In this document: positions 1,932-24,441 of the stretch, piece by piece
Layout of the letters: every line of letters begins with the position of its first letter
How positions within the stretch are numbered: the first letter of the stretch is position 1
Program-made: the position numbers and the translations under genes
Assembly (NCBI GenBank): GCA_020073085.1
Contig: JAIQFV010000002.1
Coordinates: 376,875-440,874, forward strand
Length of the DNA: 64,000 nucleotides
Direction: 5' to 3'
Origin: Terriglobia bacterium
Lineage (GTDB): Bacteria > Acidobacteriota > Terriglobia > JAIQFV01
The notes under the pieces: model-generated
Told to the model about the DNA's origin: nothing
What the model saw: only the letters and a program-made list of their open reading frames with translations
The model's database searches: none

Positions 1932-4403
1932 ATGCTCAGTAAAATCACCAGTTATCAATTCTCCGAGTTCGTTTTAGACGTCGCAGAACGCTGTCTGAAA
2001 AAGGAAAGCCAGCAGATCTATCTGCCCCCGAAGACCTTTGCAACCCTCTTGTACTTAATTGAACGGCCTGGCCGCCTCGTCAAGAAAGAGGAACTTCTCG
2101 ACGACCTCTGGCCGGATGCCGAGGTGACCGAGAACGCGTTGACCCGATGTATCAAGGAAGTCCGCGAGGCGCTTCAGGATGATGTGCATGACCCCCGCTA
2201 CATCAAGACCGTCCCCCGGGTGGGATACAAGTTCATCGCTGAAGTGGAGCCGGTTCGAGAAGCCACTCCCGTCACGGTCGTCGAGGAGGAACTGACTGCG
2301 ATGAGGGTGAAGGTCACGGATGAAGTGAATGGGGAGTTGCCATCCCCTCCTGACACCCGGACGCTCCCTGCGGAATCGTCCATGCTCGCGCTACCTGCCG
2401 CACCCGAAGGCCGGCTGAATCGATCCCGTTGGAAGGGCGCCGTTGGCATTGCCTTGACAGTTTTCACGGTATTGGCAGGGGCCTGGTATTACACCCGCGG
2501 ACGCAAGGCCTCCTTGGGTTTTGCGGAACGCGACTGGGTCCTGATCGCGGACTTTGAGAATCTCACCGGGGAAAAGGTGTTTGACGCGGCACTGCGAACG
2601 GCGTTGGAACGTGAACTGAGCCGCTCTCGTTACGTAAACTACGTGCCTCAGGGAAGAGTCTTCGACACCCTCGCTCTGATGAAACGCAGTGCCGATACCC
2701 GGGTTAATGAATCCGTGGGCCGAGAAGTGTGCTTGCGAGACGGGAATATCCGGGCACTTCTGGTGGGTGCCATCCAGCAGATCGGTGGTATCTACGCCAT
2801 CAACTTGAAGGTGATCGATCCGAAAACAGGGGTAGCGGTGAACAGTCTGGCCGAAGAAGCGGCGAATTTACAGGGGGTTCTCCCCGCGATTCGCCGACTG
2901 GCGGTGACGCTGCGAGAGACACTGGGCGAATCACTGGCTTCCATTTCCAAATCGGATCAGCAACTGGAACGGGTGACCACGCCTTCACTGGAGGCGTTGG
3001 AGGCTTATTCGAAGGGATTGCGTTTGAACGAGCAAGTTCAGTGGCCACAGGCGCTGGTTTTTCTTGATCAGGCTGTTGAACGGGACCCCAACTTTGCCAT
3101 GGCTCACTGGGCTCGCGGCTGGACGCATCATTGGACGCGAAGGCCATTCGTGGCAGATTTCAATCGGGCCGCCGAGCTGGTGGGTGGGGTCACCGATCGG
3201 GAGAAGTACACCATTCTGGGAACGCAAGCGCTCTACTGTTTCGGCGATCTCCCTCGGGCCATTGAAATCCAGGAACGCCTTCTTCAGTTGTATCCCGACG
3301 ATTACCATGCGAACGAGACCGTCGGTCGGCTCTATCTGGCGTTGGGAGATATGTCGCGATGGAGAGAGTGCTCTAAAAAAAGCGAGCGCATCCGTCCCAA
3401 CTTTACAGGCAATCACTTTGAGAACGCCGTCGTCGCACTCTTTTCGGAGAGTGACGTCGAAAGGTATTATTCGGAATCCATGCAAGTTCTCGCCCTGAAC
3501 CCCAATTACCCCGGAGGAGGCCCGCACGTGGCGGACCCCGTTCGGGACTGGATGCGTGGTGACGTGGCTCAGGCGCAGGAGAAAATTTCCAAATTCCGTG
3601 CGGGGGAAATGGCTTCGGCCTTGGGCCCGGCCTTTCAAATAAGCGTCCGCCCCTTTCTGGCCCGCTTCTATCTCTTCATCGGAAAACCGGAGGTGGCACT
3701 CGAGCTGCTTGAAACGACCCGTGGAATGGCGCCGCTAAACGCGACCGTCGATTTTTCAAAATACTGGCAACTGGAAAGAGCACTCATCTATCGAGAGCAA
3801 GGCAATGTCCGTGAATTTGAGCGCTTGGCCGGTAGCGCCGCATCGGAAGGAGTGGGAATCTCCCGGGTGGAAGCCCTCGGATGGCTGGCCATTGCTTCGG
3901 CCCAATCAGGTCGCTCCAATCAGGCCCTTGCCTTTCAAAATGAGCTTCTGAAAGAAGACCGCCTCCCGCCCGTTGGTTTTTTTAGTCCGCCGTTGCCTCG
4001 GGAGTTGGAACGTGCCAAACGCGCCTTTAGCCTTCAGATCGAGGGAGAAGTCGCGCTGAAAGACGGAAACCTGGATCAGGCAATTTCTCGCTTCAAGGGA
4101 GTGATCGATCTGGTTCCGCCTCAAGGGGTGTTTTTCACGACCAACCTTCAACCGCAGTTGTTTTTCGTGGCAAATCAATCACTGGCCGAGGCATTCGAAA
4201 AGAGAGGCGAGTGGGGGGAGGCGGTCAAAGCCGACGAAGCGATTCTCGCACAAAAGACTCAGACTATCGGAGTTACTGGAGCAGCACAGATTTGGGTGAA
4301 GGCGTTGAACTCCGCGGGCGAGGCCCTTGAGAAGATGGGAGAGACGTCACGGGCGGCCGTCTACCACGAGCAGTATCGCCAATTGCGGCCGGGGAGCAGC
4401 TAA
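1932..4403 (+). CDS. membrane-anchored winged-helix transcriptional regulator (CadC/ToxR-like, OmpR/PhoB-type DNA-binding domain) with periplasmic TPR-like domain
   Basis: N-terminal sequence with conserved W and RVGYKF typical of trans_reg_C winged helix; single TM segment (AVGIALTVFTVLAGAWYY); long C-terminal region; alternative GTG start at 1908. Confidence 0.7.
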   Translation: MLSKITSYQFSEFVLDVAERCLKKESQQIYLPPKTFATLLYLIERPGRLVKKEELLDDLWPDAEVTENALTRCIKEVREALQDDVHDPRYIKTVPRVGYKFIAEVEPVREATPVTVVEEELTAMRVKVTDEVNGELPSPPDTRTLPAESSMLALPAAPEGRLNRSRWKGAVGIALTVFTVLAGAWYYTRGRKASLGFAERDWVLIADFENLTGEKVFDAALRTALERELSRSRYVNYVPQGRVFDTLALMKRSADTRVNESVGREVCLRDGNIRALLVGAIQQIGGIYAINLKVIDPKTGVAVNSLAEEAANLQGVLPAIRRLAVTLRETLGESLASISKSDQQLERVTTPSLEALEAYSKGLRLNEQVQWPQALVFLDQAVERDPNFAMAHWARGWTHHWTRRPFVADFNRAAELVGGVTDREKYTILGTQALYCFGDLPRAIEIQERLLQLYPDDYHANETVGRLYLALGDMSRWRECSKKSERIRPNFTGNHFENAVVALFSESDVERYYSESMQVLALNPNYPGGGPHVADPVRDWMRGDVAQAQEKISKFRAGEMASALGPAFQISVRPFLARFYLFIGKPEVALELLETTRGMAPLNATVDFSKYWQLERALIYREQGNVREFERLAGSAASEGVGISRVEALGWLAIASAQSGRSNQALAFQNELLKEDRLPPVGFFSPPLPRELERAKRAFSLQIEGEVALKDGNLDQAISRFKGVIDLVPPQGVFFTTNLQPQLFFVANQSLAEAFEKRGEWGEAVKADEAILAQKTQTIGVTGAAQIWVKALNSAGEALEKMGETSRAAVYHEQYRQLRPGSS

Positions 4404-4645
4404 GGTGTCAGGTATCAGGTGCCGGGTGTCAGAATGGAGCTATCAGCGATCAGCGCTCAGCTTTCAGCGGTCAGCTATCAGCTTGCAAGTTCAAAGCAGC
4501 CCTTGCAATGTCCAGCGGTTGGCTCCGGGACTGGAAGCCCGCTCTTCTAAAATATACCTCCCTAGTTTGTACAGGGGGCAGATGGCTGAGATCTGGTAGT
4601 GATCGCTGATAGCTGACGGCTGACCGCTGAAAGCTGACCGCTGCC
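4404..4645. repeat. bipartite intergenic element: inverted low-complexity arms (CAGCTATCAGC flavour) around a unique core
   Basis: Left arm about 4434-4482 (tatcagcgatcagcgctcagctttcagcggtcagctatcagc) pairs with right arm about 4597-4643 (gtagtgatcgctgatagctgacggctgaccgctgaaagctgaccgctg); fills the whole gap between convergent stops at 4403 and 4646. Confidence 0.75.
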
Positions 4646-5119
4646 TCACGGAATCCTACAATGTGCCAGCCCGCGCTTTTCGAGATACTGTTGATGGTAT
4701 TCTTCGGCCCGGTAAAATTTTGAGGCCGGGACGATTTGCGTGACGATGGGTCGGCGGAATCGTCCGCTTTCTTCCAGGCTCTGCTTCGAGGCAAGGGCCG
4801 CAGCCAATTGTTCCGGGGTGTGATAAAAAATCGCCGAGCGATATTGCTCGCCCACGTCCGGCCCCTGTCGATTGAGGGTCGTGGGGTCATGATTTTCCCA
4901 GAACACATTCAGTAATTCTCCATAGGAAACCTGGGCCGGATCATAGTCGATCTCAACGGTCTCCGCGTGGCCGGTGGTTCCTGAACAAACGACTTCGTAA
5001 GTAGGGTTGGGGTAGTCTCCCCCTTCATACCCAACCGCAGTTGAGACAACCCCCTTGACCTGGCGGAAAGCCGCTTCGACTCCCCAAAAACATCCGGCGG
5101 CAAAATTCGCTTTTTCCAT
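4646..5119 (-). CDS. msrA: peptide-methionine (S)-S-oxide reductase MsrA
   Basis: GCFWG active-site motif near the N-terminus; length and overall sequence typical of MsrA; GGAGG ribosome-binding site 8 nt upstream. Confidence 0.9.
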
Positions 5120-5171
5120 CTCGATCCTCCAAATGTTATTCGTGATTCAGCAAGGCTTCCGGAAAAGTGGC

Positions 5172-5672
5172 TCAGGATCCAACTTCGAGCCGGGCGTCAG
5201 GCGTCCTTGGAACCACCTGGACAACATAGCGGCCGTTAAAAGCCACGGCGACCTCTCCCGCCTGGCGTATCTCGGCGGAAAGAGCGATGCGGGCCTTCCC
5301 TTTCTTTTGCAGAGTGCTGAGCATCTTTTCCAAAGTGGCGGCGTCAGGCTTACAGCAGCACGCCTTGAAGTCCCTCGTCACGGGTTGCCGGTAGTGGATT
5401 CCACTGTCTTGGATGACAATGCCTGCCTCAATGTTGGCTTCCTTCAAGATCAGCCACACGAGGCTCCAACCCGCCAGGGTGAGAGTGGCGTTGAGACTTC
5501 CAGCGAAGGCTGTCCCCTGCTGGTTGATATTCTTTCCCAGGGGAACGCTTAGAGTGAGGCATCCGTTTTCGTACCGCTCAATGGTGAGCCCGATGACGCT
5601 GGAAATAGGTATCTCGGTCTTGAGTCTCTCGATGAGCTCCTTCAAAGGGCCTTTCATTCTGAATTGGTCCAC
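5172..5672 (-). CDS. hotdog-fold thioesterase-like protein (YiiD C-terminal / DUF4442-like)
   Basis: About 165 aa with composition and length resembling the YiiD C-terminal thioesterase family; GTG start with AAGGGGAG ribosome-binding site. Confidence 0.4.
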   Translation of the reverse strand: MDQFRMKGPLKELIERLKTEIPISSVIGLTIERYENGCLTLSVPLGKNINQQGTAFAGSLNATLTLAGWSLVWLILKEANIEAGIVIQDSGIHYRQPVTRDFKACCCKPDAATLEKMLSTLQKKGKARIALSAEIRQAGEVAVAFNGRYVVQVVPRTPDARLEVGS

Positions 5673-5799
5673 CGCTCCCCTTCATATAGCTTAGCATGCA
5701 GCCGACGATTCGTGATCGGAAGAGACTTCCGCAAAAAGTACTACAGGGGACTTTGAAGCTGTCGGCTCACTGGCGAGAAATTGCGGTCCTTCGGCCGAT

Positions 5800-6309
5800 C
5801 TACTTCTTCTCAGAATCTTTTTTCGTCCCCTCCGATGGCTCTGAGGCCATCTTCTGAATTTCAGGCATCAAGGCCATGACCCGTTTCTGGGTGACCTGCA
5901 TCGTCTTTGCAGTCAGATCCGGGGTTTTCTCGAGGAGCTTCTGTCCGATCGGTGATTTATAAAACGAGGTCAGCTCCTTCATTTCTGATTCCGTGAACAC
6001 CTCCATGTAAGCTTCGACAAAATCCGGTTTCAGAATGTCCCAGCTCATATTCTTATAAACAAAATCCATCACCTTCGATTGACGGGCTTCGACCTCAGAA
6101 GCCTGTTCTTTGGAGACGTTCGGCATCTGGAAGAACCCCCCGATCATCTTTCGCATGGATTCCATCTGCTTTGACATCATCTGTTTCGTCTGCATGGCTT
6201 CGAGAAGTTCTTCTGCCGCTGCGCGATGGGACGCTTCATCGGCATACAACACCCTGCTCAGGTGAGTGATCATGAGCAGGCAAAATACCCAGCATAATTT
6301 CCTTTTCAT
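5800..6309 (-). CDS. DUF2059-like periplasmic protein
   Basis: Signal peptide (MKRKLCWVFCLLMITHLSRVLYA) then a helical domain resembling DUF2059; GGAGG ribosome-binding site before the ATG at 6309. Confidence 0.5.
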   Translation of the reverse strand: MKRKLCWVFCLLMITHLSRVLYADEASHRAAAEELLEAMQTKQMMSKQMESMRKMIGGFFQMPNVSKEQASEVEARQSKVMDFVYKNMSWDILKPDFVEAYMEVFTESEMKELTSFYKSPIGQKLLEKTPDLTAKTMQVTQKRVMALMPEIQKMASEPSEGTKKDSEKK

Positions 6310-6343
6310 GGGCGGACCTCCAATTGAATGGTTGCAGTTCAGA

Positions 6344-6361
6344 GCAGACGGGGACGTCTGC
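6344..6361. repeat. REP-like palindrome GCAGACG-GGGA-CGTCTGC
   Basis: Perfect 7 bp inverted repeat in the roughly 60 bp gap between the amidase stop and the DUF2059 start; same GCAGACG core as the pair at 749-879. Confidence 0.6.
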
Positions 6362-6368
6362 TCCACGC

Positions 6369-8036
6369 TTACTTGGGCAGCTCCGCACTGGCACGGAATT
6401 GCGGTGGTCGCCGGTGCTTTGTGGCCTGCTCAAACGAGAAAGCCAGTTTGAGAAGTACGGGCTCGCTGTAGGGTCTTCCAAAGAAGGAAATACCGACGGG
6501 CAGGCCAAAAACATACCCAGCCGGAACCGTGATGTGGGGATATCCGGCCACCGCAGCCGGTGTCGAACTGCTCCCGAAGGAGGCATCCCCATTGACGAGG
6601 TCGGTAAAGGGGGGTGGTCCGGCAGTCGGCGTCACGATGGCATCCAGCTTATGCTTCTCCAGGGTGGCATCAATTCCTTTTTCCCGGGAAAATTCCAGAT
6701 CCTTGGCCAGCGCTTTCCGGTAATCCTCGCTATCGAGCGCCCCTTTTTTCTCCGCCATCAGGAGAATTTCCTGGCCGAAGAAGGGCATTTCCCGGGCGCT
6801 GTTGCGCTGATTAAATTCAATGATGTCCTTGATCGAGCGGACGGGCGCGTTGGGCCCAAGGCCCGCCAGGTATTTGTTGAGGTCCGCTTTGAACTCGTAC
6901 AGGAGAACCTCGAACTCGGAATCGTCAAACTGTCCGGCCGTCGCAATGTCGGCGGGGTCCACGATCACGGCTCCCTGCTGCTTCATCACATCGATGGCCG
7001 ACTCGATCAAATGAACGGTCGCCCCGTTGTAGTCGAAGAACTTCGAACGGGCGATACCGAGACGTGCCCCACGCAATCCATCCGGAACCAGAAATCTCGT
7101 ATAGTCGTTGAGGGCCTTGCCGGCGCTCTCATCCGTTGCTTCATCCAGCAGGTCGACGCCGGTCATGGCGCCCAGCAGGATGGCGGCATCGGTCACGGTG
7201 CGGGCCATGGGCCCTGCGGTGTCCTGGCTGTGGGCGATCGGAATGATGCCGGAGCGGCTGATGAGTCCGACCGTGGGTTTGATCCCGACGATGGAGCAGG
7301 CTGAGGAGGGTGAAACGACCGAGCCGTCTGTCTCTGTCCCCACGGCCACGGCGCAGAGGTTCGCGGCCACGGCCGCAGCGGAGCCTGAACTGGAGCCTGA
7401 AGGCGTGCGATCCAATGCGTAGGGATTACGGCACTGGCCTCCCCGCCCGCTCCATCCGCTGGAGGAATGCGTCGATCGGAAATTGGCCCATTCGCTCATG
7501 TTGGTCTTTCCCAGCAGGATCGCACCCGCATGCCGGAGCCGCGCCGCCACAAACGCATCCCGCGCAGGAATGGAACCCGCCAACGCAAGGGAGCCGGCGG
7601 TGGTAGTCATTTTATCTGCAGTGCCAATATTGTCTTTGAGCAGGATCGGGATGCCGTGAAGCGGCCCTCGGGGTCCTTTGGCCTTGCGTTCGGCATCCAG
7701 GGCGTCGGCCGCGGCAAAGGCTTCCGGGTTGATTTCAAGGACTTGATTGAGTACGGGCCCACGATGGTTCAAGGCATCGATCCTCGAAAGGTAGGCTTCG
7801 ACAATCTTGCGAGCCGTGTACTTTCCGGACTGCATACCATCCTGAAGACTCCGCAGGGTCGCTTCCTCCAGTTCAAAAGGAGCGAATGCTGATTTCTCTG
7901 CGGTCCTCTGAGCAAATTCCAGGTGCGGTAAGAAAGGTTCAGCGACAGCGAGGGCTCCTCCCAGCAGACCGGAATTGACAAACACCCTTCGAGTCATGTG
8001 ATGGCGAGCAGTGGCACGTTCTTCATCATGCGGCAT
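6369..8036 (-). CDS. amidase (amidase-signature family), probably Tat-exported
   Basis: GGSSGGS signature motif and conserved K/S/S catalytic context; N-terminal twin-arginine-like TRRVFVNSGLLGGALAV; AAGGAG ribosome-binding site before the ATG at 8036. Confidence 0.85.
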   Translation of the reverse strand: MPHDEERATARHHMTRRVFVNSGLLGGALAVAEPFLPHLEFAQRTAEKSAFAPFELEEATLRSLQDGMQSGKYTARKIVEAYLSRIDALNHRGPVLNQVLEINPEAFAAADALDAERKAKGPRGPLHGIPILLKDNIGTADKMTTTAGSLALAGSIPARDAFVAARLRHAGAILLGKTNMSEWANFRSTHSSSGWSGRGGQCRNPYALDRTPSGSSSGSAAAVAANLCAVAVGTETDGSVVSPSSACSIVGIKPTVGLISRSGIIPIAHSQDTAGPMARTVTDAAILLGAMTGVDLLDEATDESAGKALNDYTRFLVPDGLRGARLGIARSKFFDYNGATVHLIESAIDVMKQQGAVIVDPADIATAGQFDDSEFEVLLYEFKADLNKYLAGLGPNAPVRSIKDIIEFNQRNSAREMPFFGQEILLMAEKKGALDSEDYRKALAKDLEFSREKGIDATLEKHKLDAIVTPTAGPPPFTDLVNGDASFGSSSTPAAVAGYPHITVPAGYVFGLPVGISFFGRPYSEPVLLKLAFSFEQATKHRRPPQFRASAELPK

Positions 8037-8152
8037 TGTGATTCTCCTTGGTGTGCTTGCTTTTTCGACGACAAGCGATTGCATCGCAGCCCCCCGCTCA
8101 AGCGGAAGACGTTTCAAGATTTATTGCAGCGGGGAGTCTTTGCACAGATTTT

Positions 8153-8282
8153 CGATATTAATACAAACGTCTTTGAACATGTTACAAAATTGTGCATGAT
8201 TGAACGTGGGGGCGTCCGCAGCGGCGGACGCCCCTAATCCGAAAATTTCGCAATTACACCTTGTAACTCTATTTCCAACGTT
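8153..8282. repeat. about 130 bp repeat, copy 1 (contains an 11 bp-stem GC hairpin)
   Basis: About 80% identical over about 130 bp to 61073-61205, including ...aatac-aacgtc-ttgaa-atg-tacaaaat-gtgc...gattgaacgt, the hairpin GGGGCGTCCGC-agcg-GCGGACGCCCC and tgtaactcta. Confidence 0.7.
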
Positions 8283-8611
8283 TGGGCTAGCCGTAAACGG
8301 GGCCGTTTGCAAAACATTCAGTTCAGCCTCGATTGGGCCTGCTCCCACATGAGTGACCCGGTTGGATGACGCGCTGCAGCGGCGACCCATGATAATCACC
8401 TGAAACCGAGAGTTTGGCCGATCGTCAGTCGCCTCCGGCCCTGGCATGGTCCGGAATGCGGAAATCGGTCAAGCTTGTCCCTGGATTTTGCTCCTCCTTG
8501 CCTTCTTCGGTGAAAACCACGCGGATCTGAAGTAGAATGCCGAGGGAGCGTTCGTCCATTTGGACCTCGTGCTCCCTCCACAAACTAAAAATTAACACAG
8601 AGAGAATCACT

Positions 8612-9037
8612 ATGAATGATCATTCACAAAAGAAAACGATCTGGCGGCTTTTTTCACTGGCACTCTCATTCGTCATGATAACTGTACTGGCCGCAAGTTT
8701 ATCGCCGGCCCAGGGAAGGTACGGAGGAGAGAGGGAGAAGGACAAGAAGAAAGAAGAGGAGAAACCGCAGTTTCCTTTTCAGAGGTTTAAAGGCACGATC
8801 AACACCGTCAAGCTGGAAGAACGACGATTTCTGCTGGACACCAGTGAAGGGTTCACGGTGCTCGTCCAGGTCGACGATAAGACCAAGATCAAGCACCGGA
8901 AGGAAAAGAAAGGCGGACCCGGCGTGCTCTTTGCCGATTTGAAGAAGGGCGACATCGTGGAGGTCAGCGGGCAATTACCTCCAACCCGCATCCTGCAGGC
9001 GGAGAAAATCTTTCTTGAAGCGGCGGACAAAAAGTAA
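8612..9037 (+). CDS. hypothetical secreted protein
   Basis: Signal peptide (LFSLALSFVMITVLAASLSPAQG), Lys/Glu-rich linker, small C-terminal domain; start chosen at ATG 8612. Confidence 0.45.
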   Translation: MNDHSQKKTIWRLFSLALSFVMITVLAASLSPAQGRYGGEREKDKKKEEEKPQFPFQRFKGTINTVKLEERRFLLDTSEGFTVLVQVDDKTKIKHRKEKKGGPGVLFADLKKGDIVEVSGQLPPTRILQAEKIFLEAADKK

Positions 9038-9153
9038 TCTTCAGCGTGAATGGGTTTTCCCGGGGCACGAAAAGGCATCAGGGAACAGCATTCGCGGGTC
9101 TTGTGCATGCTTGTGACAGAGAACTTGGTGTTTCTTGTACACGGAGGGAGCTG

Positions 9154-10590
9154 ATGCGGAAATTCATTCTCGGGGTGATTTCGATATGCTTGTCTTTGCG
9201 TCTGATCGGTGCTCAGCCGGCCACTGCTTTATCTCCGGTCGTGAGGGCATTCGTGAGCGTCGATGCGCCGGTCTTCGCGTTGACGCATGTCCGGGTGATC
9301 GATGGGACCGGCGCAGCCGCCGTGGAAGATCAGACTGTTGTCGTTGAGAGCGGACGAATCAAGGCCATCGGAAGGTCGGCGGATATCAAGGTCCCCGAGA
9401 ACGCCAAGGTCCTCGACCTCAGTGGAAGCACCGTGATCCCCGGCATCGTTGGGATGCATGATCACATTTTCTATCCCTCGGGCGGGGGGAGTGCGCTCTA
9501 TAACGACTTGGCGTACAGCGCGCCACGGCTTTATCTGGCCGGCGGAGTGACAACCATCCGCACTACCGGCAGCCTGGAGCCTTACACGGACTTGAATCTG
9601 AAGAAGTCGATCGATGCCGGAAGAGTTCCGGGACCCAAAATGCACGTGACTGGCCCGTATCTCGAAGGTCCGGGGGCATTCACCCTGCAGATGCACGAGC
9701 TGACCAGTCCTGAGGATGCGCGGCGAATGGTCGAGTACTGGGCCGACCAGGGCGTGACCTCGTTTAAGGCGTACATGAACATCTCGCGCGCGGAGTTGGC
9801 AGCAGCCGTCGGGGCGGCGCATCAACGCGGATTCAAGGTCACCGGGCACCTGTGTTCGGTCGGATTTCGTGAGGCGGCCGGCTTGGGCATTGACGACCTG
9901 GAACACGGGTTATTGGTGGATGCCGAGTTTGTCGCCGGCAAGAAGCCCGACACATGTCCTCCGCCCCAGGAAGCCAGAGACAGCATTGCCAAGCTTGATC
10001 TGGAGAGCGCCCCGGTTCAGGAGATGATTCGCGACCTGGTCGAGCATCATGTGGCGATCACTTCAACGCTGCCGGTGTTCGAGATTTCCGTGCCCAATCG
10101 CCCGCCGTTGGACCAGCGTGTTCTTGATGCATTGTTGCCCGAAGCGCGGATAGATTACCTTTCCATACGCGCGCGGATCGGCCAGTCCCCTTTGCCGGGC
10201 CGAGAGGCGGCCTTCAGGAAAGAGCAGCAGTTCGAACGCGAATTTGTAAAGGCCGGAGGGATGTTGATTGCGGGGTTGGACCCGACCGGGTACGGAGGCG
10301 TGATCCCCGGATTTGGGGATCAACGCGAAATCGAATTGCTGGTTGAGGCAGGATTCACACCCCTTGAAGCGATCAAGATAGCAACGTCCAACGGAGCGCA
10401 GTTTCTGGGTGAATTGGATCATATCGGCACACTCGCGGCGGGGAAGCAGGCGGATCTGGTCGTGATCCAGGGGGATCCCTCTAAGAACATTTCCGACATC
10501 AAGAAAGTTACTCTTGTCTTCAAAGATGGCATCGGCTATGACTCGGGAAAGTTGATTGAATCGGTGCGGGGGATGGTGGGATTGCGGTGA
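9154..10590 (+). CDS. amidohydrolase family protein (metal-dependent hydrolase), secreted
   Basis: Amidohydrolase-like N-terminal segment ...VIPGIVGMHDHIFYP... with metal-binding HxH; signal peptide from MRKFILGVISICLSL; GGAGGGA ribosome-binding site. Confidence 0.8.
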   Translation: MRKFILGVISICLSLRLIGAQPATALSPVVRAFVSVDAPVFALTHVRVIDGTGAAAVEDQTVVVESGRIKAIGRSADIKVPENAKVLDLSGSTVIPGIVGMHDHIFYPSGGGSALYNDLAYSAPRLYLAGGVTTIRTTGSLEPYTDLNLKKSIDAGRVPGPKMHVTGPYLEGPGAFTLQMHELTSPEDARRMVEYWADQGVTSFKAYMNISRAELAAAVGAAHQRGFKVTGHLCSVGFREAAGLGIDDLEHGLLVDAEFVAGKKPDTCPPPQEARDSIAKLDLESAPVQEMIRDLVEHHVAITSTLPVFEISVPNRPPLDQRVLDALLPEARIDYLSIRARIGQSPLPGREAAFRKEQQFEREFVKAGGMLIAGLDPTGYGGVIPGFGDQREIELLVEAGFTPLEAIKIATSNGAQFLGELDHIGTLAAGKQADLVVIQGDPSKNISDIKKVTLVFKDGIGYDSGKLIESVRGMVGLR

Positions 10591-10795
10591 AACAGGTGCC
10601 AGTTGTCGGTGAAGAGCAGTCAGCATTCAGCTCTCAGCCATCAGAAAACCCTATTGGGGCGACTAACGGGGTCTATTTCGAATTCTAGGCTGATCAGTCT
10701 CCCATTCAGATTCTTGGTCTACTGGTGTCAACTGATCGCTGAGGGTTGAGAGCTACCCACGGGCAACTGACAACTGAGAACTGACAACTTTCTTC
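10591..10795. repeat. bipartite intergenic element (CAGTTGTCAG / TCAGC flavour)
   Basis: Left arm about 10591-10645, right arm about 10724-10795 (caactgacaactgagaactgacaactt); the right arm overlaps the last roughly 13 codons of the ORF ending at 10753. Confidence 0.65.
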
Positions 10796-11286
10796 AGAAT
10801 CTCTTCCCGCTCCGCAGCCGTTGTCACCCGGTCCAGGGTCGGGTACAGAATCTGCTTTTCGCGCTCGTCGTGATGTTCGATGAGCCAGCGAAACATCGCT
10901 TCCTGGTAAAGGATCTCGATTGCCTGACGGGTGGCTTTCTTCCCTTGAATTTTTCCTCGGGGGAGCAGCTTCTTGAGGCGGTCGATGAATTCCACGATGC
11001 GCTGGTGCTCACCCAGAAAGAGCTGGGGGTCGCCCCCCGGCACCTTTCCGGCCCTCGAATAAACGGGCATGAGCAACCCTTCCTCCTCCCGAATGTGACG
11101 CTTGATCTTCCGCTCGTAGCTCTTCAGCCTCCGCAACGCCAGAGGAAAATCCTGGCGGAGCAAGGCTTCCTGGTGCTCGAGAAACACCTCGAAAATGTCA
11201 TGATGCGTATTCAATAGATCAAGGAATGAAGCCGCTTGACCGGCGTCCCTTTCCCGATCCCTACCCTTTATGGTTTTTATGCGCAT
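10753..11286 (-). CDS. hemerythrin-like (HHE cation-binding) domain protein
   Basis: Multiple H/E-rich motifs (HHDIFEVFLEHQE, EHHDERE); GAGGAG ribosome-binding site before ATG 11286; C-terminal residues KKVVSSQLSVARG are encoded by the repeat arm. Confidence 0.4.
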   Translation of the reverse strand: MRIKTIKGRDRERDAGQAASFLDLLNTHHDIFEVFLEHQEALLRQDFPLALRRLKSYERKIKRHIREEEGLLMPVYSRAGKVPGGDPQLFLGEHQRIVEFIDRLKKLLPRGKIQGKKATRQAIEILYQEAMFRWLIEHHDEREKQILYPTLDRVTTAAEREEILKKVVSSQLSVARG

Positions 11287-11530
11287 TGATTCTCCTCGAG
11301 AGGTCAATCCAAGAAAGAAGTGTCATAAGAGAGAACGCCGGGTCCCTGCAACCTGCCGCCACCAAAATTCCCTCACCATTTCACCGGGATTCTGCTAGTA
11401 TTTTTGGCTCGCATTCACCTGAAATCAAGACTCAAAAGCAAAAAGTTATCACTGCCGTCTTGAAGCCGTCACCATCGGAAGCCGACCGCTGAATCTCATC
11501 CTGACCTGCGGGCCCGACAAGGGAGGAACA

Positions 11531-12517
11531 ATGGAGCGTATTCTGTCGCACGAGTTTCTTAGAGTTGTGGAGCAGGCGGCCATTGCCACGGCTCACACCA
11601 TGGGACAAGGGGACCGACATCTGTCCGACCAGGTCGCCGTCGAAGAGATGCGAAAGGTCATGGACACCCTCGAGATCGACGGAACCATTGTAATCGGAGA
11701 GGGAGAACGGGATGAAGCCCCCATGTTGTATGTGGGCGAGCGGGTGGGCCTGGGGGCGAAAAACGACGATCGAAACATGCCTCGAATTGACATTGCCGTC
11801 GACCCCCTGGAAGGAACGAACCTGTGCGCCATGGGTGCTCCCAACGCCATCGCAGTGCTGGCGGCCTCCGAAGGGGGGGGATTGCTCAATGCCCCCGATA
11901 CTTACATGGAAAAGATCATCGTGGGCCCCTCATGCAAGGGGGCGGTGGAACTCGATGCTCCCCCCAAGGACAATCTCAGAGCCATCGCGCGGCGGCTCGA
12001 CCGCGATGTGGAAGACCTCGTGGTCATCGTACTGGACCGCCCCCGCCATCAGAAACTCATCGACGCCATCCGAGAAGCGGGGGCCCGCATTCGCCTGATC
12101 GGGGATGGAGATCTCTCGGCCGGAATTTCGGCCGCGGTCGTCGGGACGGGCGTTCACGCCGTCATGGGGATAGGCGGCGCCCCCGAAGGGGTGCTGACCG
12201 CCGCGGCCTTGCGCTGCTTGAATGGGGAGATCCTGGGCCGCCTGGTGGTGGCCAAGGAGGGACAGCGCGAGCGGATGGAGGCGATGGGGATCAAGGATTT
12301 GACCAGGATTTACTCGACGGAAGACCTGGCCCCGGGAAAGAAAATCATCTTTGCGGCGTGCGGGGTCACGGACGGGAACCTCTTGAAGGGGGTCCGTTAC
12401 TTTGGCGAGGGCACACGTACTTCCTCCCTGGTCATGACCCTGGAGGATCACAAGGTACAGTTCATCGATACCGTGCACTTGGAAAAACGGCCGGATATTA
12501 AAGTGCGGTTCTTTTGA
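11531..12517 (+). CDS. glpX: fructose-1,6-bisphosphatase class II (GlpX)
   Basis: Conserved GlpX blocks ([30 protein letters not shown]); GGGAGG ribosome-binding site. Confidence 0.9.
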
Positions 12518-12752
12518 AAGAAGTTGTCAGTTCTCGGTTCTCAGTTGTCGGTAAGAGCTTTCAGCTATCAGCCACCAGCTTTTGGCGGGAGGCTTACTGG
12601 GGGTTGTAAGCATGGTTCGAAGCAGCAATTGACCGCTGATTGGAAATCAGGTCCTTGAACAAGAAGGCGATCCTCTGGTTCGGTTGCTGATAGCTGACCG
12701 CTGATAGCCATTACTGAGAACTGACAACTGAGAACTGACAACTTACTTCAGG
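12518..12752. repeat. bipartite intergenic element (CAGTTGTCAG flavour), best-preserved example
   Basis: Left arm 12518-12579 (aagttgtcagttctcggttctcagttgtcggtaagagctttcagctatcagcc) is the near reverse complement of right arm 12684-12752; unique core about 12580-12683. Confidence 0.8.
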
Positions 12753-12763
12753 ATTGAACCAGA

Positions 12764-13309
12764 ATGACCGAGCAACACAAAACCCAAACAGTTTACGGGA
12801 TCCTTCTCGCCGTCGCCATTCTCTGGAACCTGGCGTTCATTGCGGCGCCGTGGAGCTGGGCACAAGGGCATACGATTGTGGCTACAGGGTTGTACTTGAT
12901 GTTTTCTCCGGTGTGTCATCAGCGGGCGGACCGGTCTTTCTTTGCATTCGGTCACCATCTGGCGGTGTGCCATCGCTGCACCGGGATTTACCTGGGGGCG
13001 CTGGCAGGCCTCTTGTTGGTTCCGCTGCTGAGCCTGGCGCGGCCCGGGAAAAGGGAGGGACTGGTTCGAGTTCGAATTCAGAACCGGGCATTGTTGTTGC
13101 TCGCCCTGGCGCTGATGGCCGCGGATGTGGGAGGCGAACTTTTGGGAATACGCCACAGCACCCCGATGTCTCGATTTTTGACCGGTGCCTTTTGTGGTAT
13201 AGTGGCAACGTTCTATTTACTGCCAGCCATTTTCGATATCTTTATCAAGGTTTCCAAAGAGTCCAGACCCGCCGTCGCCACTGATGTTTCCGGAATCAAA
13301 ATATTCTGA
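12764..13309 (+). CDS. DUF2085-like membrane protein
   Basis: Multi-TM protein with conserved CHQR...CHRCTGIY cysteine/histidine motif. Confidence 0.55.
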   Translation: MTEQHKTQTVYGILLAVAILWNLAFIAAPWSWAQGHTIVATGLYLMFSPVCHQRADRSFFAFGHHLAVCHRCTGIYLGALAGLLLVPLLSLARPGKREGLVRVRIQNRALLLLALALMAADVGGELLGIRHSTPMSRFLTGAFCGIVATFYLLPAIFDIFIKVSKESRPAVATDVSGIKIF

Positions 13310-13437
13310 ATGCAACCACGGCATTGAAAGCAGGGAGTTGTCATTGGAGACTGGGAACCGAGTGAAAACGCTGAGTGGGAGCGGCTTCAAGGCGCCAGTC
13401 AGGGTTCACTGAGTAGCCAAGACCAAGGAGGATCTTT

Positions 13438-14196
13438 ATGGCTCTATTTTGCTCAAAGTGCGGGACCGCTATCGTCACGGGATCAAAATTCTGTCAGGCG
13501 TGCGGGGCGCCGGCGCCTCAACCGATGCAAGCTGCGCCGCCTCCCCCAGCCCAACCACAGCAGCAATGGGCCGCACCTCCGCCGGTTCCACCCCCTCAGC
13601 CACAACAGCAGTGGGCTCCACCGCCATATGCAGCCGGTCAGCCCGGACCTCCGACGAAGAAGACCGGAGGAGCCCTCAAAGTTATCTTGATCGTTCTTGG
13701 GGTCATCGTCATCCTCATCGTGGTGGCCGTCGTAGGCGTTAGCCTGTTTATCAAGAAGACCGTGCTCGATAACGTCTCGGTAAAAGAGGGGCCGGGAGGG
13801 AGAGCCGAGGTCTCCATCAACACCCCCAAGGGACAGATCAAACTTAACTCGAAGGCGGACATTTCTGAAGAAAAGCTGGGTGTCCCGATTTATCCGGGCG
13901 CCAGGGCCGAGGAAGGGTCAGGCTCTTTCAGCATCTCCGGGGGGGAAGGGGAGAAGGGCGGCACTTTGGGCGGCGCCACCTTCACCACAACCGACAGCAT
14001 CGACAAGGTGGTCGAGTTTTACAAGAGCCGGCTGGGTAACAAGGTCAGTGCCTTTGATTCCGCTTCCGGAGGAAAACACACGGTCGTCTTGAATGTGGCG
14101 ATCCAGAACGGCTGGAAGATGATCACGATCGAGGATGAAGGGACAGGCGTGACCAAGATTGCGGTCGCGAGCCTTTCCGGGAATTCGCCGCAGTAA
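13438..14196 (+). CDS. zinc-ribbon domain membrane protein with Pro/Gln-rich linker
   Basis: N-terminal CxxC-N12-CxxC zinc ribbon (FCSKCG...CQACG), PPPPAQPQQQW low-complexity linker, one TM helix, C-terminal globular domain; AAGGAGG ribosome-binding site. Confidence 0.55.
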   Translation: MALFCSKCGTAIVTGSKFCQACGAPAPQPMQAAPPPPAQPQQQWAAPPPVPPPQPQQQWAPPPYAAGQPGPPTKKTGGALKVILIVLGVIVILIVVAVVGVSLFIKKTVLDNVSVKEGPGGRAEVSINTPKGQIKLNSKADISEEKLGVPIYPGARAEEGSGSFSISGGEGEKGGTLGGATFTTTDSIDKVVEFYKSRLGNKVSAFDSASGGKHTVVLNVAIQNGWKMITIEDEGTGVTKIAVASLSGNSPQ

Positions 14197-14286
14197 TCTA
14201 TTCGGCGGAGTGTTCTAACTGGTGATGCAGATATGCATCGGGTTTCCAGAAACAGAGCGATAGACACTTAATCAAGGGAGAGTGAC

Positions 14287-15003
14287 ATGGCCGCTTTTTG
14301 CCCGAATTGTGGAAACACGATTGATGAAGGAGCGAGGTTTTGCCAGAAGTGTGGAGCCGCATCGCCGCAGCCTGCCGCAGCGGCCCCTCCGCCCCCACCG
14401 CCACCTCCTGCTCCGGAACCACAGTGGACTCCCCAACCCCCTCCTCCACCCCAAGGACAATGGACGCCACCTCCCTCGGGGTTTCCTGCGGCGCCTGCGG
14501 GCGCCCCTTCAAATAAGATGAAAGCAGCACTGTTGGGAGGGCTGGTGGGGGGCCTTTTGTCAGGTCTTCCGTTTATTAAGGCCGGCAACTGTTGCTTCTG
14601 CCTTTGGGTCATGCTCGGCGGGGTCATCGCTGTCTATATATACAGCAAACAGCTTTATGCAATGACGGGGGGCACGGCGGCTCTCCTGGGTATGCAGAGC
14701 GGAATGGTCTCGGCAGTGGTCTCCACGATTATTTCCATCCCTTTTCAGCTCATCATGACCCGTGTGGCGGGGGGATTCCAACGGGAGATGATCGAGAAGA
14801 TGATGGAACAAAATCCCGACTTCCCACCTCAGTTTCGGGACTTTATGCTCAGGATGTTTTCTCCGGAATTTGCTGTCGGATTGATTATTTTCGGTTTCAT
14901 CATCTCGCTGGTTGTTTTCTCACTCTTTGGCGCCCTTGGCGGGATCATTGGGAGGTCGCTATTCAAATCCCATATGGTCGGCGATGTGAAGAGACCGAGT
15001 TGA
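14287..15003 (+). CDS. zinc-ribbon domain multi-pass membrane protein (paralogue of the preceding gene)
   Basis: Same N-terminal zinc ribbon (FCPNCG...CQKCG) and Pro-rich linker, then several TM segments; AAGGGAG ribosome-binding site. Confidence 0.55.
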   Translation: MAAFCPNCGNTIDEGARFCQKCGAASPQPAAAAPPPPPPPPAPEPQWTPQPPPPPQGQWTPPPSGFPAAPAGAPSNKMKAALLGGLVGGLLSGLPFIKAGNCCFCLWVMLGGVIAVYIYSKQLYAMTGGTAALLGMQSGMVSAVVSTIISIPFQLIMTRVAGGFQREMIEKMMEQNPDFPPQFRDFMLRMFSPEFAVGLIIFGFIISLVVFSLFGALGGIIGRSLFKSHMVGDVKRPS

Positions 15004-15169
15004 ACTGACAAGGGCCTTCGAAGACCCGGCTGAAGCGGGTCATGACAAGGGTTCCGAGGGGTTCAAGCCTTGAATTGCTTTGGGAACTGATCCTTAGGGA
15101 AATTACTTTTTTAAGGACGGGCCTGAGAATTTTGAATCCCGGTTGTTTCTACTGGTCAACTCCAAGTGC

Positions 15170-16873
15170 ATGATGAGGAACTTGGACGCCGCGAGCTTTT
15201 GCGATCGATATTCAAGGGCGTTCGTTGTCCTCTTGCTGCTCCTTTTCTTCTTCCACGCCGTAACCCAGATTCCCCGGAAATCTCTGACCGTCGATGAGCC
15301 CGCCAACGTTGCGGTGGGCTATGCATTCCTGAAAACCGGCGATGTCAACCTGGGGGAAGACACTCCGCCGCTGGTGCGTGTGATCAGTGCCCTGCCGCTG
15401 CTGGCCCTGCACCCCCGGCTGCCGCTGGAAGATGCGAGCTGGCGCGACCGAATCCACTGGAAATTCGGAAACGTGTTTTTCGATTCCAACCCGCCCCCGC
15501 TCTACTTCCGGATGATTTTTTGGTCCCGGGTGCCTATGGTGCTTATTGCCTGTGCCCTGGGAGGATGGGTCTATTTTGTGGCGCGTCGTTTCTTCGGGAG
15601 CTGCGCCGCTTTGGTTGCGCTGTTTTTGTTTACCCTCGAGCCCAACATCCTCGCCAACGCGATGCTGGTCAAGAACGACCTCGCCTCGGCTCTCGTTTAC
15701 TTGTGGTTTTTCTATGCGGCATGGCTCTATCTGCTTTCTCCCGATCTGCGGAGAGCATTGCACGTGGCCGCGGTGCTGGCGATCGGGATGATGACAAAAT
15801 TCTCATTGTTGTTGCTTTTCGGCCTCGCAGGGATCGTTTTCATCACTGCATTTCTTCTCCATCGGGAGAGGAGATCCTCGAAACCCACCATCGCTCACCC
15901 CACTATTCTCAAGAACCACCTGATGCATGGCCTGGCAGGGGCGGTCCTGATTATCGGGATCGCGAACCTCGGATATGGGCTGGAGCTGTTCCGCCCGCAC
16001 CTTTCGCATGTACCGCTCCATTCCAGTGTATCTCGAGTTCTGGTGCATCTTCTTCCCATAACGCTGCTGGCAGGAATCGAGAGCGTGTTTCAAGTCACGG
16101 GTACGGGTTGGCCGGCCTTTCTGGCGGGGCACTATTCGAGTACCGGTTGGTGGTATTACTATCCGCTTGCCCTTGCCATCAAACTCCCGATCCCGATCCT
16201 TGTTTTTTTCATCTCCGGGTTTGTCTACGGTCTCTATGTGGTCGTCCGGGACAGGGATTGGCGGTGGTTTCTTCTTTTGCTCGCCGTAGTCATCTATCTC
16301 GTTCCCAGCCTGGGCAGCAAGGTGAACGCCGGCCTGCGCCATATTCTCCCGATCTTCCCGCCGATGTGCATCCTGGCGGGCGCGATGGTCGCACGGATCC
16401 TTGAGCGGGGTCGGAAACCCGTGAAGGTGGCGGTTGCAATCTTACTGGTGGCGCTGCCGATTTTGGTGTTGAGGACATATCCGGATTATCTGGCCTATTT
16501 CAACGAGATCATCGGAGGACCACGGAACGGATGGAAATACCTGAGCGATTCCAATTTGGACTGGGGGGAAGAACTCCCTCGCCTGGCTTCCTATGCTCGT
16601 GAGAATCAGATCGATGATCTCAAGCTGGCCTATCTGGGCGGGGGCAATCCGGAGTTTTATGGGATGCACGCTACGATGTTGGAGGTTCCTTACGCCTGGG
16701 AGCCGCACGATCTCCCTCCGAAAATGTCTCCCTCATCAGGAACTTATGCGATCAGCGTGACGCTTCTCCAGGGCACTGTCTTCGGAGATCGTCGTGACTA
16801 TTTTCAATATTTTCGGGATCGAGAGCCGATGGCTCGGCTGGGGGAGTCGATTTTTGTTTTTCAAGTGCATTAG
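15170..16873 (+). CDS. glycosyltransferase family 39 / ArnT-like membrane glycosyltransferase
   Basis: About 12 predicted TM helices with a conserved DEP motif in the first loop (LTVDEPANVAVGYAF), typical of ArnT/PMT-type enzymes. Confidence 0.7.
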   Translation: MMRNLDAASFCDRYSRAFVVLLLLLFFFHAVTQIPRKSLTVDEPANVAVGYAFLKTGDVNLGEDTPPLVRVISALPLLALHPRLPLEDASWRDRIHWKFGNVFFDSNPPPLYFRMIFWSRVPMVLIACALGGWVYFVARRFFGSCAALVALFLFTLEPNILANAMLVKNDLASALVYLWFFYAAWLYLLSPDLRRALHVAAVLAIGMMTKFSLLLLFGLAGIVFITAFLLHRERRSSKPTIAHPTILKNHLMHGLAGAVLIIGIANLGYGLELFRPHLSHVPLHSSVSRVLVHLLPITLLAGIESVFQVTGTGWPAFLAGHYSSTGWWYYYPLALAIKLPIPILVFFISGFVYGLYVVVRDRDWRWFLLLLAVVIYLVPSLGSKVNAGLRHILPIFPPMCILAGAMVARILERGRKPVKVAVAILLVALPILVLRTYPDYLAYFNEIIGGPRNGWKYLSDSNLDWGEELPRLASYARENQIDDLKLAYLGGGNPEFYGMHATMLEVPYAWEPHDLPPKMSPSSGTYAISVTLLQGTVFGDRRDYFQYFRDREPMARLGESIFVFQVH

Positions 16874-16904
16874 TGTATTTGACGGGAAATTGGAACGGCC
16901 GGAG

Positions 16905-17105
16905 AGTAGAGGTGATAGGTAATAGGTTATAGGAAGAAACAGGAAACCTGACGTTGGCTGTTTGAGGAATGAAGCGAGCGTCGTTGTCTGTTGCGGAGAG
17001 TTCAACTCCCGTACCGAGCTTCTAAGACCTCTCGCCGACCTCTGTCTTTGTAGTTCATTGGGTGAAACCTAACACCAAACACCTAATACCTATCACCTCT
17101 TTCCT
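16905..17105. repeat. bipartite intergenic element (GGTGATAGG / AATAGG flavour)
   Basis: Left arm gaggtgataggtaataggttataggaagaaacaggaaacc pairs with right arm ggtgaaacctaacaccaaacacctaatacctatcacctc. Confidence 0.7.
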
Positions 17106-17124
17106 CATTAGAAACCTATCTCTT

Positions 17125-17883: not shown

Positions 17884-17983
17884 CTCGAATGCGATTGAAA
17901 TGACGGTAAAGGGCGCAGAGATGTTTGGCGGGGGCGCATCTTTGCTCCATTTGGCGGAAGCGCAGGCTTGATTCGTAGCCGTC

Positions 17984-18017
17984 CGCAGACATGGACGCTG
18001 GGGCGGTCATGTCTGCG
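17984..18017. repeat. REP-like hairpin CGCAGACATG-N14-CATGTCTGCG
   Basis: 10 bp perfect inverted repeat sharing the GCAGAC core with the palindromes at 749-879 and 6344-6361. Confidence 0.5.
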
Positions 18018-18069
18018 CCACCAGACGATTCAATCATCCGAAGGGCAGTTGCTGTCAGAAGAGAACGGA

Positions 18070-18106
18070 TCGCTATTGCTGACAACTGACAACTGACAAC
18101 CGGCAA
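18070..18106. repeat. single low-complexity arm (GACAACTGACAACTGACAAC), no clear partner
   Basis: CAGTTGTCAG-type motif directly downstream of the htpX stop. Confidence 0.5.
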
Positions 18107-24440: not shown

Positions 24441-24441
24441 T

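Follow-up and report, generated by a model that had tools for sequence, protein, structure and literature searches.

The question considered here is whether the repeat elements dispersed through a 64-kb stretch of a Terriglobia (Acidobacteriota) metagenome-assembled genome (MAG) of a soil acidobacterium, hereafter the window, inserted at the ends of genes and added tails to the encoded proteins. The question was raised by the locus between an amidohydrolase and a hemerythrin-like gene, where element E2 reaches into the hemerythrin-like open reading frame (ORF), and by a methyltransferase ORF whose first codons lie inside an arm of element E4 (Table 1). The reading that we consider likely is that the elements are clade-specific, dispersed palindromes of heptamers that abut stop codons; that the hemerythrin tail is read-through into an arm, and the methyltransferase extension is spurious; and that the family spread by insertion or conversion, its copies being kept as RNA hairpins.

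Heptamer arrays were located with Tandem Repeats Finder (TRF) and a sliding period-7 scan, with periods 5, 6, 8, 9, and 10 and 20 shuffles as controls. At the end of the hemerythrin gene, both methods detected the array that belongs to the right arm of the element at 10591-10795 (TRF, 10764-10789, CAACTGA x 3.7; period-7 scan, 10757-10792), and the codons at 10756-10794 together with the stop codon at 10753-10755 lie within this array. The ORF (10753-11307, minus strand) encodes 184 amino acids (aa) with the C-terminus ...EREEILKKVVSSQLSVARG, and the Pfam match to PF01814 covers residues 29-158. The protein P0001 from an Acidobacteriia MAG (177 aa) is 100% identical to the window hemerythrin, and its gene call includes the tail. 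The residues VVSSQLSVA are encoded by the four outer heptamers of the arm, AGTTGTC AGTTCTC AGTTGTC AGTTGCC, and the following RG and the stop codon by the spacer CGTGGGTAG.

The orthologous loci were compared in close relatives (L001-L003, L064, L068, L069, L190, and L192, with L190 belonging to the L001 genome) and in the outgroup L191. An alignment of 27 hemerythrin sequences (A1) revealed the conserved C-terminus ILKKCS, followed directly by the stop codon, in P0005, P0007, P0009, and P0010. The tails VVSSQLSVARG, VISSQLSVAS, and VISSQLSVAG were limited to the window protein, P0002, P0003, and P0004, and the tail VASH was limited to P0006. The nine bases TGCTCCTAA (TGC TCC TAA) are absent in the window, and without them L003 and the window share the same reading register, which indicates that the two lysines (codons 10789-10794) are ancestral. 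Thus, the earlier note, which had derived the last 13 hemerythrin codons from the right arm, was correct about the arm origin of 11 residues (VVSSQLSVARG), but not about the two lysines. With TGC TCC TAA missing, the frame passes through the four outer heptamers to the first stop codon, which is located in the spacer, and thereby produces VVSSQLSVARG.

The tail did not accompany the arrival of the element. In L003 and L064, the site is occupied by an element while the ancestral Cys-Ser-stop is retained, which indicates that the tail arose after the element had arrived, and no element was present between the hemerythrin and amidohydrolase genes of the outgroup genome. Comparison of the loci thus points to a later boundary shift or stop loss, and not to a product of the original insertion. 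In L192, the hemerythrin gene (L192:18018-18629, minus strand) encodes 203 aa and ends in ...ILKKCFLGARCRVPGVSGKKQKARSQKSEVRGQKSKPGNLR; its tail of 34 residues (FLGARCRVPGVSGKKQKARSQKSEVRGQKSKPGNLR) follows a frame through AGGTGTC and AGAAGTC arrays, and this is a second stop loss, independent of the window-type tail. The alignment of orthologues proposed in the earlier note showed the tail with only one version of the element; the element-free loci end in KKCS or otherwise and none of them carries the tail, so that the outcome named there as refuting did not occur. The genes downstream of hemerythrin differ in the element-free L065, L066, and L067, and L005 keeps the same neighbor. Taken together, the alignments indicate that the tail is real, encoded by the arm, and specific to the element version with AGTTNTC arms.

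The tail could also be explained as an artefact of sequencing or assembly at a repeat, or the gene could be a pseudogene, with the real protein ending in ...KKCS. Repeats are error-prone in assembly, and metagenome contigs often break in these elements: contigs of the same organism stop inside them, with the end of L062 corresponding to position 10730 of the window (E2) and the start of L063 to position 12631 (E3), from which it follows that the repeats break metagenome assemblies. However, the window sequence was identical in two other metagenome assemblies and differed at 1 of 7,980 bases in a third, which argues against a sequencing error and left no copy-number variation to score. L001, P0003, and P0004 share the junction and tail type, and L002 has a shortened form; the remainder of the window gene is intact and retains all invariant hemerythrin residues, and the AlphaFold model of the protein is confident to about residue 170. 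An artefact therefore has, in our estimation, a barely perceptible probability.

A selected, functional extension of the hemerythrin protein would be suggested by the retention of V(V/I)SSQLSVA in four proteins and by the AlphaFold model, in which the last helix (H164-182) runs into and through the tail. The conservation is, however, accounted for by the arm at the DNA level, the Pfam domain already ends at residue 158, and the predicted local distance difference test (pLDDT) score falls from 94 to 79 and then to 43 along the tail. The tails of the different genomes also vary in length (4, 10, 10, 10, 11, and 34 residues). We regard a functional tail as very improbable, and since the length differs between genomes, the tail is better read as a neutral by-product.

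The methyltransferase ORF presented a different case. Its longest version (17062-17883, plus strand, 273 aa) has as its first codon a GTG that lies within the arm (TRF, 17067-17098, ACCTAAC x 4.6) and reads MKPNTKHLIPITSFLIRNLSL ahead of M22, which corresponds to the ATG at 17125. All 15 aligned homologues begin at M22 or a few columns from it (consensus M..R.GDT.KI.GDYQY), none of them has the upstream extension, and the NCBI model P0040 (252 aa) also starts at or near M22. The suggestion of the earlier note that the longest ORF starts in the arm and that the true start is likely at 17125 was thus borne out by the homologues and by P0040. Because an arm of ATAGGNN units (type II, see below) is open when read outward, the ORF is extended back to 17062, and the 21 codons ahead of 17125 are an artefact of ORF listing rather than a tail. 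The more general claim that the elements can add short tails accordingly holds for hemerythrin, whose tail is arm-derived, but the methyltransferase extension is no tail, and no homologue has it.

Both elements belong to a family of about 13 members, all intergenic, which make up 4.7% of the 64 kb. The window contained 20 period-7 segments, and none were found for the control periods or in the shuffled sequences. The elements are about 190-240 nucleotides (nt) long, and each has a variable center of 60-110 nt flanked by inverted arms, two in number, that are built of tandem heptamers. The arms are heptamer arrays of 30-80 nt that are not self-complementary, so that a hairpin requires both arms together. 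Read inward, type I arms have the form (YCRG-NNN)n, most commonly TCAG-NNN units (AGTTGTC, AGCTATC, AGGTGTC, and similar), and in their usual layout a spacer of 6-7 nt separates four outer units (AGTTNTC or AGGTNTC) from an inner AGCNNTC block. Type II arms read inward are (ATAG-GNN)n, and type III arms are (TCCAAAN)n. The type I arms start with AGTT, AGGT, or AGC; neither GTAG nor CGTC occurs at the ends, and GTAG is present only within some type II units. Terminal inverted repeats were found in E3 (65 nt, 80% complementary) and E4 (20 nt, 95% complementary). The arrays at the hemerythrin and methyltransferase ORFs each have an inverted partner at a distance of some 100 nt, and most of the elements fold into long hairpins (Table 1). 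The fold of E2 has a predicted energy of -69.2 kcal/mol (z = -2.3), and this element is a degraded copy, others reaching z = -6 to -8.

All-against-all BLAST of the elements detected similarity in the arms alone, apart from a core of about 55 nt in a subset, namely E6 of the window, E4 and E6 of L068, E6 and E7 of L069, and, weakly, E4 of L069. A metagenome scan with the 16-mer core pattern GAATAGGCTTCYAATT gave at least 120 loci, and all of those listed were chance matches; nhmmer found no real core. Rfam gave no match at the gathering score anywhere in the window, and a search of 10400-24600 at E <= 1 yielded nothing relevant, so that the elements are not a known RNA. An association of the elements with tRNA or tmRNA was absent in the window, L190, and L192. 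Arrays of this kind were present in L001-L003, L064, L068, L069, L190, and L192 and once in the outgroup L191, and about 57 loci from other Acidobacteriota, Myxococcota, and Planctomycetota, which amount to roughly 300 kb, contained no comparable arrays. The family thus appears to be clade-specific.

The position of the elements relative to genes was surveyed at 15 gene 3' ends adjoining an element. The first heptamer lies between -2 and +10 nt from the stop codon at 11 of these junctions and 33-50 nt away at three, while the remaining one, that of hemerythrin, is invaded. Bases are shared between the first heptamer and the stop codons at 4401, 18107, 20896, and 52733. On the start-codon side, 11-160 nt are left between the arm and the gene. 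Among intergenic regions of at least 100 nt, elements occurred in none of the nine divergent regions, compared with 12-13 of the 24 convergent or tandem ones (Fisher p = 0.005-0.012). The motif "TGAAG(N)A" ahead of some arms was considered as a stop codon borne by the element, and this was rejected at the right end of E3, since the motif there corresponds, in reverse complement, to the conserved ribosome-binding region of the gene downstream.

The reading-frame properties of the arms account for the two overlaps described above. Over about 700 nt of type I arms, 6 stop codons were counted inward and about 62 outward, the latter because a TGA is present in every unit; in type II arms, which have few stop codons or none outward, the relation is reversed. 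Arrays of TCAGNNN are almost free of stop codons in any frame inward and carry TGA in every frame outward. Since the inward array is nearly stop-free, a gene that loses its stop codon ahead of a type I arm would read on for many codons, and simulated read-through at the remaining type I junctions extended over 12-100 codons. The coding overlaps may be neutral by-products of arms that touch stop codons.

The evidence for insertion came mainly from another gene. A complete heptamer palindrome is located in frame inside the gene of the CCA-adding enzyme, between the H and HD motifs (L190:18125-19714, minus strand; L192:10001-11605, plus strand). In L192, the arms of the insert are (AGTGGGC)n and (GCCCACT)n, with a fold energy of -114 kcal/mol for the sense strand. 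The outward arm in L190 is CTGGCAA x 4, and the frame stays open because TGG stands where TGA would normally be found. A hypervariable insert of 35-100 residues was present in all 13 aligned close homologues (481-546 aa), whereas all five orthologues from other Acidobacteriota (441-455 aa) lacked it. The insert is predicted to be disordered (pLDDT 26-37) within a confident fold. A terminator could not have evolved inside this gene, which suggests that at least some copies arrived by insertion or conversion. The family may have spread by insertion or ectopic conversion, in the manner of REPINs or of MITEs (miniature inverted-repeat transposable elements).

The earlier note had also held that the overlaps favor a mobile or insertional origin over a purely regulatory one. 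The first part is backed by the palindrome in the CCA-adding enzyme gene and by the element-free hemerythrin site of the outgroup, but not by the tail, which is later than the arrival of the element. As to the second part, the tail alone is no argument against regulation, and the abutting of stop codons, the avoidance of divergent regions, and the stability of the sites fit elements similar to repetitive extragenic palindromic (REP) sequences. An insertional origin is thus partly supported, mainly by evidence other than the tail, and a REP-like RNA role remains compatible with it.

Comparison of orthologous sites revealed rapid change of the arms. At the glpX stop (E3 site), the arms are AGTTGTC/AGCTATC in the window, AGGTGGT/AGGTTTT in L002, AGGTGCC/AGTGGGC in L003, and AGGTGTC/AGC in L192. 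At the E4 site, the arms are of AGGTAAT type in the window and of AGGTGTC/AGC types in L068 and L069. The two arms of one element are more alike than either is to the orthologous arms elsewhere at the E3 site and, as far as the left arms are concerned, at E4; an exception at E4 is the right arms of L068 and L069, which are very alike. At E6, all genomes compared use the same unit types. The match within an element is generally better than that between genomes, which indicates that the arms of one element change together. The arrays may turn over by slippage, and conversion or selection for pairing would keep the two arms alike.

The center of E6, together with the inner arm units, has in the window (19122-19187) the opposite orientation to that in L068 (L068:4815-4880) and in L069, although the flanking genes are collinear; the minus-strand high-scoring segment pair (66 nt, 88% identity, E = 6e-16) lies between plus-strand flanks. 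Two versions of the element were found at the hemerythrin site. The first, with AGTT/AGC arms and the tail junction, is present in the window, L001, and L002, where the elements are collinear with E2; the second, with AGGT/AGAAGTC arms and an intact stop codon, is present in L003 and L064. The hemerythrin and amidohydrolase trees place L064 differently.

Further arrangements of the elements were observed at other sites. At the glpX/DUF2085 site of L190 (L190:4555-4822), a nested or duplicated element has AGGT and AGC followed by AGTT and AGC left arms and one right arm. An AGC-type arm is found at the stop codon of msrA (PMSR) in three genomes (window 4596-4645, L190:16172-16240, and L192:11890-11945), although its other side is not the same in all of them: L190 and L192 have the CCA-enzyme region there, and the window has a tetratricopeptide repeat (TPR) regulator. 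The elements may mark rearrangement breakpoints.

Could the elements instead be purely host-evolved regulatory hairpins, such as terminators or mRNA stabilizers, that formed in place by slippage and palindrome formation and were never mobile, with the overlap resulting from array expansion? Such an origin would agree with the retention of sites between species and even in the outgroup (that of E6 is filled in the window, L068, L069, and L191), with arms that abut stop codons and co-vary so that pairing is kept, and with divergent regions that are free of elements. A conserved promoter-like site for htpX directly after E6 points in the same direction, and neither a target-site duplication nor a transposase was seen. 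These observations have to be set against the complete element within the coding sequence of the CCA-adding enzyme and against the occurrence of the same core of about 55 nt, in either orientation, at three loci of different genomes (the E4, E6, and E7 sites). In addition, the whole cassette differs between the near-identical flanks of L002 and L003, the hairpins are not followed by a U-tract, and E11 lies between sdhA and sdhB, which are normally co-transcribed. We therefore consider an exclusively host-evolved origin unlikely.

The positional data favor a function of the elements as REP-like RNA hairpins, and this is probably their role; by analogy with REP elements, the copies would be kept or tolerated as RNA hairpins at transcript 3' ends or between cistrons. 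The site observed next to E6 (19047-19074, minus strand) has the form TTGACA-16-TACTAT, with 10 of 12 matches, and is the best promoter-like site in 4000-23900; it lies in the interval between E6 and htpX and is kept in L068 and L069. Relatives of htpX are called at 288 aa, so its start is probably downstream of the TTG at 19060. Apart from this one conserved site, canonical promoters were not enriched.

Several results weigh against the combination of spread by insertion and retention as RNA hairpins. The sense strand was the more stable one in 9 of 14 elements (p = 0.42), and the excess of G-U pairs over the 13 elements of tandem genes (106 vs 74) is a trend only. No U-tract follows the hairpins; the right arms are succeeded by coding or ribosome-binding-site sequence. 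A scan for the U-tract terminator consensus gave 22 sites vs 22.8 expected, none of which combined the main hairpin of an element with a T-run, and one was located in the center of E1. Most centers have no detectable similarity to each other, and an nhmmer profile of the core recovered E6 alone in the window. The Pfam scan of about 47 window ORFs revealed neither a transposase nor a REP-associated tyrosine transposase (RAYT), and direct reading of the flanks of E1, E3, E6, and E8 showed no target-site duplications; the flanks of E3 continue the inverted repeat. The sites are moreover very stable, that of E6 being filled in the window, L068, L069, and the outgroup L191, and this stability fits vertical inheritance with evolution in place as well as it fits mobility. 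Finally, the distribution of the versions at the hemerythrin site conflicts with the trees of the flanking genes: the flanks of L002 and L003 are 93-95% identical, yet their versions differ. Because the versions run against the flanking-gene tree, a simple history with a single event is not established; parallel events, recombination between lineages, or old polymorphism may explain the conflict.

The periodicity of the arms allows another interpretation, in which they are arrays of protein-binding sites, YAG triplets with 4-nt spacing, an oligomeric protein controls the hairpins at 3' ends, and the overlap with genes is incidental. YC(A/G)G recurs every 7 nt in type I arms, up to 10-11 times per arm, and ATAG/GTAG every 7 nt in type II arms, so that both type I (TCAG-NNN) and type II (ATAG-GNN) place YAG every 7 nt inward and leave the other positions free. 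HutP recognizes three XAG motifs spaced by 4 nt, at two sites that flank a terminator stem, which it opens (PMC2425495); the likeness lies in the 7-nt period (XAG plus 4 spacer nt) and in the flanking arrays and is one of sequence geometry only. Protein binding has been proposed, not shown, for other bacterial heptamer arrays (PMC4679880; bioRxiv 10.1101/2022.06.06.494920). HutP differs in having 3+3 motifs at one operon, whereas the window has about 13 sites in 64 kb with as many as 11 units per side. The type III arms (TCCAAAN) have no YAG, the Pfam scan of the window ORFs gave no candidate protein and no HutP or TRAP domain, and a periodic YAG could reflect the common descent of the units. 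The in-frame insert of the CCA-adding enzyme shows, in addition, that units survive without such a role. We regard an array of binding sites as quite improbable.

A far-reaching extension of this idea, to which we likewise give only a slim chance, would treat the heptad arrays (YAG plus four free bases) as operator sites of an undiscovered genome-wide system in this Terriglobia clade. An oligomeric protein that binds RNA or single-stranded DNA would read the periodic YAG of the 5' arm and decide on hairpin formation at the ends of hundreds of cistrons, the protein or a dedicated recombinase would keep the arms matched and flip the center, and the copies within genes, namely the hemerythrin tails and the loop of the CCA-adding enzyme, would be fossils of active propagation, not of slippage.

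The REP elements of E. coli are located downstream of genes, between convergent or co-directional genes, and not between divergent ones. REP/REPIN elements and the TAACTGA-type heptamer arrays are the closest known relatives of the family. The window elements resemble REPs, BIMEs, and REPINs in being extragenic, present at high density, and hairpin-forming, and a REPIN is a REP doublet, mobilized by RAYT transposases, with two inverted arms around a spacer. REPINs are stated to remain at their sites for long times (bioRxiv 10.1101/2022.05.22.493013). Flanking ORFs often take their stop codon from a REP terminus, and some REPs inside ORFs encode residues (Di Nocera et al. 2013, PMC3733652). REPs carry a conserved GTAG or CGTC tetranucleotide at one end, and Acidobacteria encode RAYT-like "TIRYT" transposases (PMC3733652). 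In contrast to REPs, which are self-palindromes of 20-40 nt, the window elements have arms of 30-80 nt of tandem heptamers and no GTAG/CGTC tag; their unit sequence varies between copies and between species at the same site, and no RAYT was found among the window ORFs.

Direct repeats of the heptamer TAACTGA are known from marine Beggiatoaceae, Cyanobacteria, and Bacteroidetes (MacGregor 2015, PMC4679880). They are likewise tandem and mostly intergenic, and their unit is nearly identical to those of the window (TAACTGA vs CAACTGA or GAACTGA). In the "forward" reading they provide stop codons in three frames and overlap ORF ends, and in the "reverse" reading they are open and give LSVISYQ-type peptides at protein termini (PMC4679880). 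The latter is the same mechanism as that of the VVSSQLS tail. However, the TAACTGA arrays are direct repeats (only one indirect repeat has been reported), are in most cases located shortly ahead of start codons, and have no predicted fold, whereas the window arrays form inverted pairs and long hairpins, abut stop codons, and comprise many unit types. The cyanobacterial short tandemly repeated repetitive (STRR) heptamers are further repeats of this kind.

MITEs such as Correia, ERIC, BOX, and RUP are non-coding, about 100-250 nt long, have terminal inverted repeats, are intergenic, fold as RNA, and occasionally extend or interrupt ORFs. The window elements share their size class, terminal inverted repeats, intergenic dispersal, and RNA folding, but show no target-site duplication and appear to lack a homogeneous internal sequence, and their terminal repeats are fast-evolving tandem subrepeats. 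MITEs are described in general terms in PMC3184786. In the literature searched, the combination of heptamer arrays that form palindromes stable in position and fluid in sequence was not found described.

The window also contains other repeats and long gaps. The tandem 93-nt units adjoining E12 (54885-55250) each consist of a TTTGGAN heptamer array and a CCGCC...GGCGG hairpin and are located downstream of an anti-sigma/extracytoplasmic function (ECF) sigma gene pair. The gap between sdhA and sdhB (51711-52732, 1,022 nt) comprises E11 and about 800 nt of unassigned sequence, with a low-confidence ORF at 51689-52159. At 58324-58438, in a convergent intergenic region, three tandem units of 35-40 nt (GGATTGGAAATTGGAAAGGTCTGACCCGAGAATTC) were found, and the overlapping ORF 58050-58484 is probably spurious. 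An 11-nt tandem repeat (GATGTAGTGCC x 4.2) extends from the stop codon of ribonucleotide reductase onward (32546-32593). Upstream of the same gene, there is an untranslated stretch of 584 nt (29582-30165) without an Rfam match at the gathering score, for example to a cobalamin riboswitch.

Table 1. Elements and adjoining genes in the window, and hemerythrin gene ends in the window and at related loci.
Feature	Coordinates or gene-end sequence	Strand	Remarks
E1	4404-4645		fills exact gap between convergent stop codons TAA 4401-4403 and TGA 4646-4648
Amidohydrolase gene	9046-10590	+	stop codon TGA 10588-10590, 3 nt ahead of first heptamer
E2	10591-10795		between convergent amidohydrolase and hemerythrin genes; left arm 10594-10644, center 10645-10730, right arm 10731-10795
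Hemerythrin-domain gene	10753-11286	-	annotated length 177 aa (P0001)
Hemerythrin stop codon (10753-10755) and 11 arm-encoded codons (VVSSQLSVARG)	10753-10788	-	ORF list, alignment A1
E3	12518-12752		begins 4 nt past glpX stop codon; -107 kcal/mol, z = -7.4; best-preserved hairpin near hemerythrin site
E4, type II (ATAG-GNN)	16900-17124		left arm 16908-16935, right arm 17062-17104; z = -3.9
Spurious N-terminal ORF extension of methyltransferase	17062-17124	+	outward-reading arm
Class I S-adenosylmethionine (SAM)-dependent methyltransferase gene	17125-17883	+	true extent 252 aa; Pfam, homologues, P0040
E5, mini-hairpin	18048-18108		arm shares 2 nt with htpX stop codon TAG
E6	19080-19270		conserved core of about 55 nt (19148-19201), inverted vs orthologous L068 and L069 elements
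E7, type II	20680-20898		clpB stop codon inside last heptamer; z = -6.2
E8	24229-24441		arm 0 nt after stop codon at 24442; z = -6.4
E9	43485-43680		both arms heptamer arrays, mutual complementarity lost; z = +0.8
E10, type III (TCCAAAN)	50555-50790		downstream of sdhB; z = -5.6
E11, type II	52505-52745		between sdhA and sdhB; 2 nt overlap with sdhA stop codon
E12 and 3.8 tandem 93-nt units	54600-55257		z = -8.0; each unit a heptamer array and small hairpin
Window hemerythrin end	AAG AAA GTT GTC AGT TCT CAG TTG TCA GTT GCC CGT GGG TAG		reads into arm
L001 hemerythrin end	junction as in window		element present, gene reads into arm
L002 hemerythrin end	window-type junction, TAG earlier (truncated tail)		element present, gene reads into arm
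L003 hemerythrin end	AAG AAA TGC TCC TAA then GGTGTC AGGTGTC...		element present, arm abuts stop codon
L064 hemerythrin end	AAA TGC TCG TGA, 12 nt, then AGGTGTC arms		element present
L065, L066, L067, and L005 hemerythrin ends	KKCS and stop codon in L065 and L066; other endings in the rest		no element

The coding overlap is a known side effect of bacterial repeats such as REPs and TAACTGA arrays and is ordinary when taken alone, while the repeat family itself appears to be undescribed in the literature searched. In practical terms, the elements break metagenome assemblies, give rise to spurious ORFs, and lead to wrongly called starts and stops in the annotation of these MAGs. The essential tRNA CCA-adding enzyme carries, at the place of the insert, a hypervariable loop of 35-100 residues that is predicted to be disordered. 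The repeats also seed new peptide segments, the hemerythrin tails of 4 to 34 residues having been gained at least twice.

The value of the family lies in long heptamer-armed hairpins that are fixed at stop codons across species, while their unit, copy number, and center orientation change. The elements provide a natural system for the concerted evolution of the two arms of a palindrome. In addition, canonical terminators are not enriched in the window, and the elements may show what marks transcript 3' ends in Acidobacteriota.

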